The notes under the pieces are model-generated. The model was given only the letters and a program-made list of their open reading frames with translations, had not been told where the DNA came from and did no database searches. Below are positions 6,052-16,457 of a DNA stretch of 64,000 nucleotides, one piece after another. Position 1 is the stretch's first letter; every line of letters begins with the position of its first letter. Where the stretch lies: assembly GCF_056712565.1 (NCBI RefSeq), contig NZ_CM160072.1; one strand, given 5' to 3'. The position numbers were made by a program, and so were the translations under genes.

Positions 6052-6090
6052 ATAATAATAAAGGCCGTTCGTTACGGCCTTTATTATTGA
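6052..6090 (-). terminator. Hairpin terminator between the late-region moron and the holin
   Basis: Perfect stem AAAGGCCGT / ACGGCCTTT (6060..6082) with 5-nt loop, flanked by A/T runs. Confidence 0.5.
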
Positions 6091-12928: not shown

Positions 12929-13129
12929 CTAATCTTTCGGATAGATATCCGGTCTTAAGTCAGATTTCGTAATTGCACCTGACGTGCATTGCTCAAGTTT
13001 TTTAGCCAGCACAAAACTGGCTTTTTTATAGCCATTGAAAACCAGCCGTAAGTAGCCAGGTGTTGAGCCAACTTTTCCGGCCAACTCGCCCTGCTGTTCT
13101 TTGGTTAAAGAGTCCCAATACGCTTTCAT
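12929..13129 (-). CDS. Cro-like HTH regulator (YdaS-like)
   Basis: 66-aa protein transcribed divergently from the CI-type repressor with a palindrome-containing intergenic region between them. Confidence 0.6.
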   Translation of the reverse strand: MKAYWDSLTKEQQGELAGKVGSTPGYLRLVFNGYKKASFVLAKKLEQCTSGAITKSDLRPDIYPKD

Positions 13130-13219
13130 ACAATGTGTACCTCAGGTGTACATATTACATGATTGAAATGAACCTTCAAGATACTTGTACCTTAACGGTA
13201 CAAGGGTTTTAATTTCGTT
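13130..13219. promoter_or_regulatory. Immunity-region operator/promoter between cro-like and cI-like genes
   Basis: Two palindromes sharing a GTAC core: TGTAC-N7-GTACA (13136..13152) and CTTGTACC-N5-GGTACAAG (13184..13204), in a 90-bp AT-rich divergent intergenic region. Confidence 0.55.
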
Positions 13220-13894
13220 ATGAAAACAATCCATGACATCCGGCGGTCTAACGCCAGAAAACTGAGAGATGGTGTTGGCGGGAATTCTTCCTTTGCCACT
13301 ATGATTGATCGCGAGCCAACCCAGACCAGCAGGTTTATGGGAGATGGTGCTACTAAAAATATCGGTGACAGCATGGCACGACACATCGAAAAATGTTTCG
13401 ACCTGCCTGTCGGATGGCTCGATCAAGAACACCAGACAACGAACATCACAAAAAAACCTGATGTTTCAATCACTAATAAACAAATCACATTAGTCCCTGT
13501 CATATCATGGGTACAGGCCGGAGCATGGAAAGAAGTTGGATATTCTGAGGTTGATTTGAGCACAGCAGAAACGTATCCCTGCCCTGTACCCTGTGGGGAA
13601 ATGACTTATATCTTGCGGGTGATAGGTGATTCAATGATTGATGAGTACCGCCCGGGAGACATGATTTTTGTCGATCCTGAAGTACCTGCCTGCCACGGTG
13701 ACGACGTTATTGCATTGATGCACGATACAGGTGAAACCACCTTCAAAAGGTTGATAGAAGATGGGACACAGCGTTATCTCAAAGCGTTAAACCCAAACTG
13801 GCCTGAGCCTTACATTAAGATCAACGGTAATTGCTCTATAATTGGTACTGTGATTTTCTCAGGAAAACCAAGAAGATACAAAATCAAAGCCTAA
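13220..13894 (+). CDS. CI-type repressor with S24 (LexA-like) autopeptidase domain
   Basis: 224 aa; N-terminal HTH region and C-terminal S24 domain with catalytic serine context VIGDSM. Confidence 0.85.
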   Translation: MKTIHDIRRSNARKLRDGVGGNSSFATMIDREPTQTSRFMGDGATKNIGDSMARHIEKCFDLPVGWLDQEHQTTNITKKPDVSITNKQITLVPVISWVQAGAWKEVGYSEVDLSTAETYPCPVPCGEMTYILRVIGDSMIDEYRPGDMIFVDPEVPACHGDDVIALMHDTGETTFKRLIEDGTQRYLKALNPNWPEPYIKINGNCSIIGTVIFSGKPRRYKIKA

Positions 13895-13907
13895 TCAATG
13901 TTTATGA

Positions 13908-13929
13908 ACCTGCTTCGGCAGGTTTTTTT
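13908..13929 (+). terminator. Rho-independent terminator after the repressor gene
   Basis: Stem ACCTGC-TTCG-GCAGGT followed by TTTTTTT. Confidence 0.6.
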
Positions 13930-14046
13930 ATACTTGACAATGTACCTTTGGGATACATAATGTACCCAAGAGAAACAACAAACAGGCAGGACGCCCACGA
14001 AGTAGCCGCCTGGGGCATATGAAGTCCAGGATGATTCGTTAGCAAC

Positions 14047-14075
14047 AAAAAAGCGCCCTATAGGACGCTTCGCTC
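14047..14075 (-). terminator. Terminator hairpin downstream of 14097..14609
   Basis: Minus-strand stem AAGCG-N10-CGCTT followed by a U-rich tract. Confidence 0.4.
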
Positions 14076-14096
14076 TTTAACAATCTGGATGACTTA

Positions 14097-14609
14097 TTAC
14101 TCAGATTTGAACTTTGGTTCTGGCAAAAGAGGAGGAGTTGAGTCCTCGAATCGTAGCCAGTGCTCCCAGATATCGTGGGATTGTAATTCCAGAAGACCAA
14201 TTTGACGTGATGCAACTGCAGTGCCAGCTATAGTTCCTCCTGCATAATCAACCTGGACGGACTTTGACGCTTTCTCAATTAATTCTGTCCAAGCTTCACT
14301 TTCCGCGTTAAAAGAAGCAGTTAATTCCTGCAGACGCTGTGGATCATCCTTGTTGTCTTGTTTCAAACGATTCAGGGCGGCCACCGAATACTTATTCTTA
14401 ACCCAACTAACCTGAGCTAACTGAACTCTCTGACAAGCGTCCATATCAGTAGTTGTTTCCTGAGGCATATCAAAGCAGGAAATAAAAAAAGTCTCAACAC
14501 CATCATTTAGACTACTGCTCGGCTGGTTCAAAGCATCAGAAGCATTGGATGCTATCGGTATTATCAGTGCTACCGACAGAATCAAACGTTTAACATAAAT
14601 CGCTCCCAT
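14097..14609 (-). CDS. Secreted/periplasmic protein with cleavable signal peptide (possible DUF1311/LprI-like)
   Basis: N-terminal KRLILSVALIIPIASNA-SD looks like a Sec signal peptide with an AxA-type site; two cysteines in the mature part; low GC; convergent with the repressor gene. Confidence 0.45.
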   Translation of the reverse strand: MGAIYVKRLILSVALIIPIASNASDALNQPSSSLNDGVETFFISCFDMPQETTTDMDACQRVQLAQVSWVKNKYSVAALNRLKQDNKDDPQRLQELTASFNAESEAWTELIEKASKSVQVDYAGGTIAGTAVASRQIGLLELQSHDIWEHWLRFEDSTPPLLPEPKFKSE

Positions 14610-14896
14610 TTAATTATCCCCTCTAAGAACAGAGTCATCCAGATTAGCCGAATCCTTGTTGTTGGGGAATAACCAGGCCCACCTCGCCTGATGTGGCTAA
14701 AAGCAGGCACATAACAGCTAAGTATTTTCAACCAGAGAGAATCCTTAGCGTTGTGGTGAATGCGGCTCAGCGCACGCGGGTTAAGGTTGAGGCTGACAGT
14801 CGACCTTCTGTGGATACCCACCCGCCTGGTGTGCAACCTTCGCCAGGCACCGGGAGGCACCCGGCACCACAACTTTATGCTGTGTGTAGTCCTGGC

Positions 14897-14940
14897 GGTA
14901 CCAGCTTGTACCCTTGCTTCCGGCTGGTACCGCTCTTTTT
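14897..14940 (+). terminator. Terminator-like hairpin in the noncoding region upstream of the yfdP-like gene
   Basis: Perfect 9-bp stem GGTACCAGC / GCTGGTACC (14897..14905 and 14923..14931) followed by CTCTTTTT; the stem also carries GTAC motifs like the immunity-region operators. Confidence 0.4.
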
Positions 14941-15077
14941 ACAAAACAGAGAAGAGCATCACCGGACGACGGGCTCATAACCCAATCCACCCGGGCGGCT
15001 GCCACCGCAGGTGTTCTTCTCTGTTTTGTGGAGAAACCAACCGACCTTGCAGGGTCGATATGATGAGGAGCAGCAAA

Positions 15078-15440
15078 ATGGCTAGCGAACGCAGTACCAA
15101 CGTGCAGGAATTTATCGGGGAGCTGGACGGCGGCGTATTTGAAACCAAAATCGGCGCAGTTCTCAGTGAAGTCGCTTCCGGTGTGATGAACACGAAAACC
15201 AAAGGTAAGGTCTCGCTCAACCTGGAAATCGAACCGTTTGATGAGAACCGTGTGAAAATAAAACACAAACTCTCATATGTTCGTCCGACTAACCGCGGGA
15301 AAATTTCCGAAGAAGACACCACCGAAACGCCGATGTATGTCAATCGCGGTGGTCGCCTGACTATTCTGCAGGAAGACCAGGGACAATTACTGACTCTTGC
15401 CGGTGAACCTGACGGAAAACTCCGCGCAGCAGGTCATTAA
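15078..15440 (+). CDS. YfdP-like prophage protein
   Basis: ~120 aa starting MASERSTNVQEF..., with GAGGAG RBS 7 nt upstream; directly precedes YfdQ- and YfdR-like genes as in the E. coli CPS-53 prophage. The longer ORF from 14760 is an unlikely extension. Confidence 0.5.
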   Translation: MASERSTNVQEFIGELDGGVFETKIGAVLSEVASGVMNTKTKGKVSLNLEIEPFDENRVKIKHKLSYVRPTNRGKISEEDTTETPMYVNRGGRLTILQEDQGQLLTLAGEPDGKLRAAGH

Positions 15441-15505
15441 TATCGTTCTTAATTAACTGATTATTTATCTCATCACTGAATATCTTTATATAGTGAGGAC
15501 TTATT

Positions 15506-16330
15506 ATGTCTCAGAACTTAGACGCAACCGCAATTAATCAAATCCATGCCCTTATTTCTGCTCAGGGTGTTAATGAAATTATCAGTAAGATTGGTGCCGA
15601 CGCAGTGGCATTACCTGAAAATTTCCGCATTCATGATCTGGAAAAATTTAATTTAAATCGCTTCCGTTTCCGTGGTGCGCTTTCCACTGCCAGCATCGAT
15701 GACTTTACCCGTTATTCTAAAGATCTTGCGGATGAAGGCACCCGCTGCTTTATCGATGCCGATAATATGCGTGCCGTCAGTGTGCTTAACCTGGGTACTA
15801 TTGATGAGCCTGGTCACGCAGATAACACCGCCACTCTCAAACTGAAAAAGACAGCACCGTTCTCTGCTCTGTTGTCTGTTAACGGCGAGCGTAACTCCCA
15901 GAAGTCACTGGCAGAATGGATTGAAGACTGGGCCGACTACCTTGTGGGCTTTGATGCTAATGGTGATGCCATTCAGGCAACAAAAGCGGCTGCGGCAGTC
16001 CGTAAAATCACGATTGAAGCAAACCAGACCGCTGATTTTGAAGACAATGACTTCAGCGGCAAACGCTCCCTGATGGAGTCTGTCGAAGCGAAGACCAAAG
16101 ATATTATGCCAGTGGCATTTGAATTTAAATGCGTTCCGTTTGAAGGCCTGAAAGAACGTCCGTTTAAATTACGCCTCAGCATTATCACTGGCGATCGTCC
16201 TGTACTGGTTCTGCGCATTATTCAGCTGGAAGCAGTGCAGGAAGAAATGGCTAACGAATTTCGTGATCTGCTTGTTGAGAAATTCAAGGACAGCAAAGTA
16301 GAAACCTTTATTGGTACTTTTACCGCCTGA
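15506..16330 (+). CDS. YfdQ-like protein (DUF2303)
   Basis: 274 aa, same length and gene neighbourhood as E. coli YfdQ. Confidence 0.65.
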
Positions 16331-16457
16331 TTTCATTACTGCAAATGCCCCTGCGGGGGCATTTATGGAAACGTAATTGACTCAATAATCGCCGGATGGT
16401 GAGGGCTTTCTTTTACCAGAATTCAGCGCGGTGCAGCGCATATACGTGGAGAACAAA

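Follow-up and report, generated by a model that had tools for sequence, protein, structure and literature searches.

Positions 14,610 to 15,077 of a 64,000-nucleotide stretch of DNA (the window; NCBI RefSeq assembly GCF_056712565.1, contig NZ_CM160072.1) precede the gene yfdP in an SfV/e14/ST64B-type lambdoid prophage without an N gene. They contain what is apparently an undescribed conserved RNA, here called M6, a three-way junction whose apical hairpin copies the anticodon arm of the initiator tRNA (tRNA-fMet). Very probably, the region makes up the distal half of the untranslated leader, ~1-1.1 kb long, of the operon transcribed from the early-left promoter PL, and this leader is a series of separable RNA modules in which an STnc100-type small RNA (sRNA) module with its terminator is followed by M6. 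The best overall explanation joins this anatomy to an action on the initiation machinery, and taken as a whole it is, in our judgement, somewhat favoured; the mechanism itself, in which M6 would act in cis on translation initiation of the downstream operon via the 30S P site and IF3, is put forward only tentatively. M6 is of interest as a very common, covariation-backed RNA that has no Rfam family and whose most conserved part copies the tRNA arm that defines initiation. The region had been described in an earlier reading of the letters alone (the original prediction), whose observation is confirmed and whose interpretation is partly supported.

Structure and conservation of the junction RNA M6

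The original prediction had pointed out a perfect 15-bp inverted repeat, and its arms, ACAAAACAGAGAAGA (14941-14955) and TCTTCTCTGTTTTGT (15015-15029), are indeed exact complements. The repeat lengthens to 25 nt at 84% complementarity, and as RNA it forms the core of a 20-bp helix with two G-U pairs, in a fold of -54.7 kcal/mol (z = -4.3) that beats all 200 shuffles. Perfect inverted repeats of at least 15 nt with a loop of at most 100 nt number two in the 64-kb window, against a mean of 0.02 in dinucleotide shuffles. The other one (AATAATAAAGGCCGT...ACGGCCTTTATTATT, 6054-6088) looks like a bidirectional terminator, with a small late-region gene on one side and the holin gene of this prophage on the other.

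Homologues were collected by searching viral contigs with the most conserved string between the arms, which gave more than 120 loci and 49 distinct versions; these were aligned with MAFFT and folded with RNAalifold, and the structure was then refined. The refined structure consists of a basal helix P1, a helix P2 bearing the apical hairpin, and a hairpin P3 (Table 1). It pairs 97.7% of 1334 cells, as opposed to 40-52% with slid partners; both sides have changed in 8 of the 29 pairs, and the covariation score was reached by 0 of 500 shuffles. Compensatory changes occur in P1 (CG/AU, GC/CG, AU/GC), P2, and P3. In a second, larger set collected with a different anchor, P1 position 14/150 is CG (n=37) or GC (n=33) and position 20/144 is AU (n=48) or GC (n=22), and P2 and the base of P3 also covary. 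The folding and covariation check across related prophages that the original prediction had called for thus supports M6, with the helix of the repeat conserved. M6 is an RNA of the + strand, since its G-U pairs are frequent, many of them turning into A-C when read on the other strand, and since covariance model R1 scores 117.7 bits on + and 38.3 bits on -.

This asymmetry also makes a symmetric DNA site unlikely, and the idea that the repeat is a DNA-level protein-binding palindrome, or that the region codes for protein, deserves hardly any weight. A coding region could be the pseudogene annotated by RefSeq/PGAP or an N-terminal extension of YfdP; an open frame (14760-15440) runs in phase with yfdP, and some phage records carry 'hypothetical protein' calls here in addition to the PGAP pseudogene. 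Yet the substitutions are compensatory for RNA pairing, with G-U pairs that work only on the + strand, and the interiors of the elements are interchangeable. Lengths change by inserts that are not multiples of three, both in M6 (104-131 nt among homologues) and in the sRNA core (101-162 nt), and all frames are closed in most relatives; past the 3' end of P1, a stop is reached in each of the three after a median of 10-16 codons. The lack of a convincing coding signal, as originally claimed, therefore holds, and the protein and pseudogene calls over the region are most likely spurious calls over structured RNA, of which thousands would be corrected. A leader peptide from the conserved (G/A)UG-GAG-AAA beside P1 was also considered and is taken as unsupported: its start is GUG (85), AUG (44), or ACG (2), its open reading frame (ORF) spans 3-230 codons, does not exceed the other frames in length and in some cases runs on into yfdP, and a 1-nt indel separates near-identical relatives.

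M6 matches no Rfam family, even in a 161-nt scan at E up to 10, and full-text search, the hairpin sequence included, returned no description of it; a literature search for an RNA element upstream of yfdP likewise gave nothing. Of 5426 complete E. coli genomes, 2517 carry it, at up to five places each and for the most part with no annotation or beneath a 'hypothetical protein' call; it also occurs in more than 100 viral contigs, and carriers include the Shigella phages SfV, SfII, and SfIV and Salmonella ST64B. Each phage holds a single copy, and a search with R1 found no second copy in the early-right (PR) or late operons of this prophage.

A one-genome-per-species scan located full M6 in many Enterobacterales genera. 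A 21-nt core turned up in phage-like contigs assigned to Acidobacteriaceae, Planctomycetaceae, Phycisphaeraceae, Deltaproteobacteria, and Alphaproteobacteria and in an unclassified metagenome-assembled genome (MAG); these searches required the exact 21-nt core, and match counts from them are counts among the matches listed. The distant cores are flanked by different, mutually complementary arms, e.g. CUCCAAUC/GAUUGGAG, GCGAUCGC/GCGAUCGC, and GCCGCGGGC/GCCCGCGGC. Wherever neighbours could be annotated they were phage genes: the Planctomycetaceae contig has a portal gene downstream, and one of the metagenome contigs has an Erf-like gene. In the minimal distant versions an ORF begins ~40-65 nt past the 3' end of the motif. 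Two metagenome loci (L292, L295) carry the core ~10 nt after a good promoter match (TTGACC-18-TAGACA); a large gene whose motifs (HPHAHG) resemble those of replication initiators follows 90-200 nt downstream, and by this context the core is not confined to lambdoid phages.

The gene next downstream of M6 is yfdP in 100 of 121 loci and elsewhere yfdR, an rdgC-like gene, or xis-int; a dedicated M6-yfdP pair of RNA and protein was ruled out, as 21 of the 121 loci are without yfdP. A T-run ends immediately before P1 in 181 of 200 unique contexts. At one locus (L047) M6 lies ~25 nt past PL as the sole element between PL and the first gene. Divergent copies in Pantoea (a MAG, L245) and Raoultella (L256) prophages stand after the Q antiterminator gene and before the holin and endolysin genes, and at the Pantoea locus a terminator separates the Q gene from the M6 copy. 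Because these contexts combine an upstream terminator with varied first genes in both early-left and late operons, M6 is a leader element of phage operons, typically placed right after a terminator and before the first gene, whichever gene that is. The junction RNA or its core was also seen at three more loci (L279, L281, L312) in the late leader between a Q-like gene and the holin and endolysin genes.

The PL leader and its small RNA module

The segment of the window from 13000 to 16400 is 100% identical in the chromosomes of E. coli ATCC 11775, APEC O1, S88, and further strains. PL is oriented rightward, and its transcript runs antisense across a minus-strand moron (14097-14609), then through 14610-15077, then into yfdP. 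In the PL operon, yfdP, yfdQ, and yfdR are followed by two small genes, one hypothetical and one excisionase-like, and by int, with no N-like gene in the PGAP annotation. Since PL and the operator OL lie upstream and the PL transcript runs into the region, 14610-15077 is best taken as distal PL leader and not as operator region, with its modules in the order sRNA core, linker, terminator, M6, small hairpin, and ribosome-binding site (Table 1).

The original prediction had suggested OL/PL here and had likened GGTACC/TTGTACC strings in the terminator to operators. Neither idea survives: the operators and the 11/12 promoter lie at 13934-13978, ~0.7-1 kb upstream, and a scan for the operator dyad TTGTACC-N5-GGTACAA gave six matches (1.8 expected), only at 13135-13203 (OR) and 13940-13978 (OL), with 0 in 14610-15077. 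The strings in the terminator are coincidental, because phages whose operator regions differ retain this terminator at 97-98%.

To read the region as an OL/PL control region or as a nut- or put-type antitermination site is, on this and further evidence, very improbable. Such a site would suit the position on the PL transcript before the first gene of a phage without N, the L047 locus with M6 alone between PL and the first gene, and the fact that polymerase must somehow pass the leader terminators. However, PL itself lies upstream with the dyads, M6 has no second copy in the PR operon, it stands downstream of the terminator needing suppression, and it also occurs in late leaders past Q genes, where Q would presumably antiterminate. 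The nut site once suggested lacks both an N gene in the operon and a boxA-plus-boxB pair inside the region; what remains of that proposal is, in spirit, a structured leader RNA of the early-left operon, in that PL transcription covers the region and the repeat forms a helix conserved at the RNA level.

The put RNAs of HK022, another lambdoid phage without N, are likewise structured, belong to early leaders, and have terminators after them (PMC9378689). They are antiterminators that act in cis and render RNA polymerase terminator-resistant by way of its beta' zinc-binding domain. They differ from M6 in being ~70 nt with two stem-loops, in occurring once per early operon, and in preceding the terminators, whereas M6 is a three-way junction, single, absent from the PR operon, and placed after a terminator. 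Neither R1 nor R2, the model of a PL-proximal RNA treated below, has a match at HK022 putL/putR, which show no sequence similarity to M6. The lambda N-leader holds nutL and a long RNase III-sensitive hairpin before N. As in the present region, a long imperfect helix separates the early-left promoter from the first cistron; the difference is that here there is no N gene and no boxA plus boxB inside the region; as the apical structure is conserved, M6 would be more than an RNase III substrate.

The sRNA module matches the full length of the STnc100 model at 45.4 bits (E=1.2e-7), and the same match is returned by a scan of the whole window. Its signatures are a closing helix, a 5' UGGUGAAU with hairpin, a 3' CCGGGAGGCACCCGG hairpin with CACCA, and a 3' terminator; aligned to the Rfam consensus, UGGUGAAU and its hairpin form the 5' side of a long-range helix and CACCGGGAGGCACCCGGCACCA the 3' side, followed by the terminator. 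The terminator-like hairpin with a T-run in the original prediction is therefore the terminator of this module. The hairpin is present with a longer stem than proposed, its 11-nt arms being 100% complementary and extended in the minimum-free-energy fold to 13 bp, then CUCUUUUU; it was skipped by a consensus scan only because its loop exceeds 8 nt and otherwise has the features of an intrinsic terminator. It is 97-98% conserved in many phages with differing upstream sequence. The 228-nt fold of the module (-94.5 kcal/mol, z = -3.8) beats all 200 shuffles, and the proposal of a prophage-encoded small RNA was right for 14720-14942.

STnc100, or EcOnc27, is described as an Hfq-binding prophage sRNA of unclear role that is related to PasD (PMC12711010; PMC12370729; bioRxiv 10.64898/2026.05.13.724894). 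With the canonical version (EcOnc27/sRNA103 of E. coli O157) the present copy has in common the closing helix, the end signatures, the terminator, and a lambdoid prophage location. The interior and the linker, a possible seed, differ, and the canonical version lies downstream of stx2B or near Q, whereas this one lies in the PL leader upstream of yfdP. Comparison of relatives shows a superfamily sharing the closing helix; this helix (GUUGUGG.../...CCACAAC) encloses at least 27 differing interiors (27 sequence clusters), the canonical STnc100 interior (L312) among them. The module is present in 2082 of the 5426 complete E. coli genomes. By comparison with the family, the sRNA part is ordinary, a divergent copy of a known prophage sRNA at a new position. 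A candidate seed region is the linker at 14874-14894, which is unlike that of canonical STnc100; it lies just 5' of the terminator, where a canonical seed is proposed in the Pas sRNA preprint. Part of the linker, UUGCUGUGUGUAGUC, is kept in ST64B, phiES15, LLS, and phiNP despite different terminators.

The apical hairpin and its possible function

A full-text search with the sequence of the apical hairpin led to papers on E. coli tRNA-fMet, whose published sequence contains ...CGUCGGGCUCAUAACCCGA... (PMC8887418). M6 (CGACGGGCUCAUAACCCAA) is identical to it at 13 of 13 positions of the anticodon stem-loop and at 17 of 19 with the flanks, and the likeness is limited to these 19 nt. ARAGORN was negative for tRNAs and tmRNAs both here and in 14 related loci, and a tRNA gene or attP remnant was rejected on this negative result and on the end of tRNA-fMet identity at 19 nt.

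Since the first search pattern had contained the hairpin, the collection was repeated with two hairpin-free anchors. The anchor on the P2 flank recovered the exact 13-mer in 137 of 151 matches. The anchor on the 3' strand of P1, which excludes the hairpin, gave 72 distinct sequences, in which C34 (72/72), A35 (69/72), and U36 (72/72) are kept more strictly than U33 (65), A37 (57), and A38 (62), with C32 in 69. The GGG/CCC stem is almost invariant in this set, whereas P1 and P3 vary. Three G-C pairs and the loop CUCAUAA, as in a mimic of the initiator anticodon arm, are thus conserved, and CAU is kept in the contigs of distant groups too. A full-text search for phage mimics of the initiator-tRNA anticodon stem-loop gave only reviews and unrelated papers.

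M6 could accordingly be named a candidate for a widespread class of phage leader RNAs that functionally mimic the initiator anticodon arm, whether for steering 30S/IF3 or for disarming nucleases of tRNA-fMet, and we regard this as quite possible, if short of probable. The initiation machinery is indicated because an initiator-type arm is conserved, and a role in cis in operon expression is favoured because M6 stands constantly just before the first ORF, in early-left and late operons alike. In the proposed mechanism, polymerase halting at the terminator (~14940) would release the short sRNA, while read-through would give the first cistron (yfdP in this case) a 5' leader that includes M6. M6 would then present its initiator-anticodon-arm mimic (CAU, three G-C pairs) to the 30S P site with IF3, where the P site/IF3 checkpoint would read the three G-C pairs and the CAU-AUG pairing, and would capture or compete for 30S subunits beside the first ribosome-binding site. 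If the mimicry is functional, it would be a new phage route to the initiation machinery or against tRNA-fMet-directed defence, and it would account for the layout of terminator, junction RNA, and first gene common to early-left and late operons.

Several observations weigh against this account. Only the upper three stem pairs match tRNA-fMet, positions 27-28/42-43 being mismatched; U33 is C in 7 of 72 sequences and positions 37 and 38 are variable; and M6 lies ~40-250 nt from the start codon, with hairpins between. CUCA is a generic YUNR U-turn loop, of a type used in RNA-RNA recognition, so the likeness to tRNA-fMet could be convergent. As to the anatomy, the STnc100 match stays below the gathering score of the family (45.4 vs 47 bits), with relatives at 35-41 bits, and on the + strand of 14610-14720 no sigma-70 match is convincing as a promoter for the sRNA. 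The sole candidate is a weak site (9/12, 14590-14617), and the sRNA may instead be a terminated or processed product of PL transcripts. The PL-proximal RNA (13977-14042), a lead on how PL transcripts may pass this terminator, is not detectably a put RNA by model R2. The alignments are rich in close relatives, so the M6 counts are not counts of independent events.

M6 might instead be a purely structural leader element, its likeness to tRNA-fMet a coincidence or a convergence on a U-turn loop set on a G-C clamp, and serve as a 5' stabiliser after processing, an RNase III site, protection of the leader from Rho, or a loop that pairs with AUG-containing starts; we consider this rather unlikely. 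The long 20-bp basal helix fits such roles, as does a ~1-kb leader that is untranslated on the + strand and would be exposed to Rho. Several downstream genes begin AUGAG or UAUGAG, complementary to the loop CUCAUA, and loop positions 32, 33, 37, and 38 vary with CAU constant, a pattern that would fit plain AUG pairing, or methionyl-tRNA synthetase, as well. But start-codon contexts beyond AUG are not consistently complementary, and a match to one tRNA arm of 13/13 (17/19 with flanks) is expected by chance at ~1e-5, a rough estimate. Moreover, across distant groups conservation is highest in the hairpin with the unpaired GAC and AAUCC, and the helices change freely, which argues for a specific ligand rather than bulk structure.

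A third possibility, that M6 is an early-expressed RNA decoy or sensor for nucleases of the initiator-tRNA anticodon loop (VapC-type PIN toxins, e.g. Shigella or Salmonella VapC), is judged unlikely. Abortive shut-off of translation initiation would here be blunted by an abundant early transcript that bears the tRNA-fMet anticodon arm. The conserved hairpin is identical to the tRNA-fMet anticodon stem-loop, M6 occurs in SfV, SfII, SfIV, and ST64B, it stands at the very start of the operons first expressed after induction or of late operons, and the motif spans distant bacterial groups, as PIN toxins do. A decoy, though, has no need of a site after a terminator and before the first ORF, yet M6 is found there in 181 of the 200 contexts; it would be present at one copy per transcript against thousands of tRNA-fMet molecules; and 10 of 72 sequences have C in place of A38, the neighbour of the reported cleavage site.

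For the action in cis that we tentatively prefer, two known systems offer comparisons. The E. coli thrS operator is an anticodon-arm mimic in an mRNA leader and is bound by threonyl-tRNA synthetase. It and M6 are both 5'-leader hairpins that copy the anticodon arm of one tRNA near a ribosome-binding site; downstream of the thrS operator lies the gene for the cognate synthetase, whereas M6 copies the initiator tRNA and precedes unrelated phage genes. In the intergenic-region internal ribosome entry site of dicistroviruses, pseudoknot I mimics an anticodon arm paired to a codon and enters the ribosome. Only the idea of an mRNA-borne anticodon-arm mimic addressing a ribosomal tRNA site is common to both, for M6 has no supported codon-pairing pseudoknot and the short ORF by P1 is not conserved.

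Other elements of the leader and its surroundings

Table 1. Features of the region and its surroundings, with positions in the window
Feature	Position	Strand	Basis or remarks
cro-like gene	12929-13129	-	divergent from ymfK
OR operator dyads	13135-13203		operator dyad scan
ymfK repressor gene	13220-13894	+	divergent from cro-like gene
PL promoter, TTGACA-16-CATAAT	13934-13961	+	11/12 sigma-70 match; overlaps OL, just past the terminator of the repressor gene
OL operator dyads	13940-13958, 13960-13978		operator dyad scan; outside the studied region
Probable promoter-side/5' untranslated spacer of the minus-strand moron (secreted 170-aa protein, 14097-14609)	14610-14674	-	position and conservation
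Leader module M1, CCACCTCGCCTGATGTGGCTAAAAGCAGGCAC	14675-14712	+	conserved in SfV, phiES15, LLS, and several IMG/VR contigs
sRNA 5' hairpin, GCUAAG.../...CUUAGC	14717-14749	+	inverted-repeat scan and fold; sequence varies among relatives
STnc100-family sRNA module (Rfam RF02076)	14720-14942	+	full-length model match 1-206
Multi-hairpin core closed by GUUGUGGUG/CACCACAAC	14750-14873	+	9-nt arms, 100% complementary
'Frameshifted hypothetical protein' pseudogene	14753-15063	+	RefSeq/PGAP annotation
Single-stranded linker, UUUAUGCUGUGUGUAGUCCUG	14874-14894	+	unpaired in fold; candidate seed
Intrinsic (Rho-independent) terminator	14895-14940	+	stem 14895-14905/14923-14933, T-run 14934-14940
Three-way-junction leader RNA M6	14941-15029	+	alignment, RNAalifold, covariance model R1
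M6 P1 basal helix	14941-14960 with 15010-15029	+	contains the 15-bp repeat
M6 P2	14962-14966 with 14990-14994	+	bears the apical hairpin above an asymmetric internal loop
Hairpin flanks, GAC and AAUCC	14968-14970; 14984-14988	+	near-invariant
Apical hairpin, GGGCUCAUAACCC	14971-14983	+	three G-C pairs, loop CUCAUAA, anticodon CAU
M6 P3 hairpin	14995-15008	+	length very variable
Small hairpin, ACCGACC UUGCAG GGUCGAU	15040-15059	+	between the junction RNA and the yfdP ribosome-binding site
Shine-Dalgarno, GAGGAG	15065-15070	+	
yfdP	15078-15440	+	start codon 15078-15080

A second conserved structured RNA (13977-14042, +) begins a few bases past the PL start. The closing helix reads RCGAA/UUCGY and the small hairpin GGC-AGGAC-GCC; for the main stem six or more compensatory variants are seen (CCUGG/CCAGG, CCGGU/ACCGG, CCCGG/CCGGG, CCCCA/UGGGG, CCGAU/AUCGG, CCUUG/CCAAG), and 94.2% of cells are paired vs 20-44% when slid. 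It occurs behind differing operators in SfV, ST64B, phiNP, and Yersinia and Pectobacterium phages, and several relatives are without it. It gives no thermodynamic signal (z = -0.2) and no Rfam match, and a search with model R2 for another copy in the PR and late operons here was negative. Homology to HK022 put was considered, as GAAC...GGAUGA strings are shared by eye, and rejected, as R2 finds nothing in HK022.

Further along the leader, the hairpin AAAAAGCGCCCUAUAGGACGCUU (14050-14071) is the terminator of the minus-strand moron read on the PL strand, and after it, outside 14610-15077, comes a perfect boxA consensus, GCUCUUUAACAA (14076-14087). This junction of hairpin and boxA is conserved at the left edge of several minus-strand moron cassettes, which suggests that Nus factors might help PL transcripts to cross the moron cassette as in rrn-type systems. 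The PL-proximal RNA and the boxA are leads on how polymerase passes terminators and not findings.

Within the spacer of the moron, TTGTTGTTGGGGAATA is kept upstream of differing minus-strand morons. M1 (CCACCUCGCCUGAUGUGGCUAAAAGCAGGCAC) lies directly after PL in LLS, and certain contigs have it abutting the seed-like linker and terminator, with no STnc100 core between. Relatives carry a hairpin of different sequence in the same place as that at 15040-15059. In other versions of the leader (L010 1750-1850; L007, L005, L068) a larger domain replaces the hairpin upstream of the STnc100-type core; it contains two T-loop-like hairpins, GUCCG-UUCGAUU-CGGAC and CUGG-UUCAAUU-CCAG, and ARAGORN calls no tRNA in it. 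In the K-12 prophage CPS-53 (L131 3240-3620), the immunity region has been deleted up to a point just short of the yfdP ribosome-binding site; K-12 is without the sRNA module and the junction RNA, and K-12 transcriptome data are therefore uninformative on both. The sequence upstream in CPS-53 holds direct repeats of the type GATTTTGA(C/T)G.

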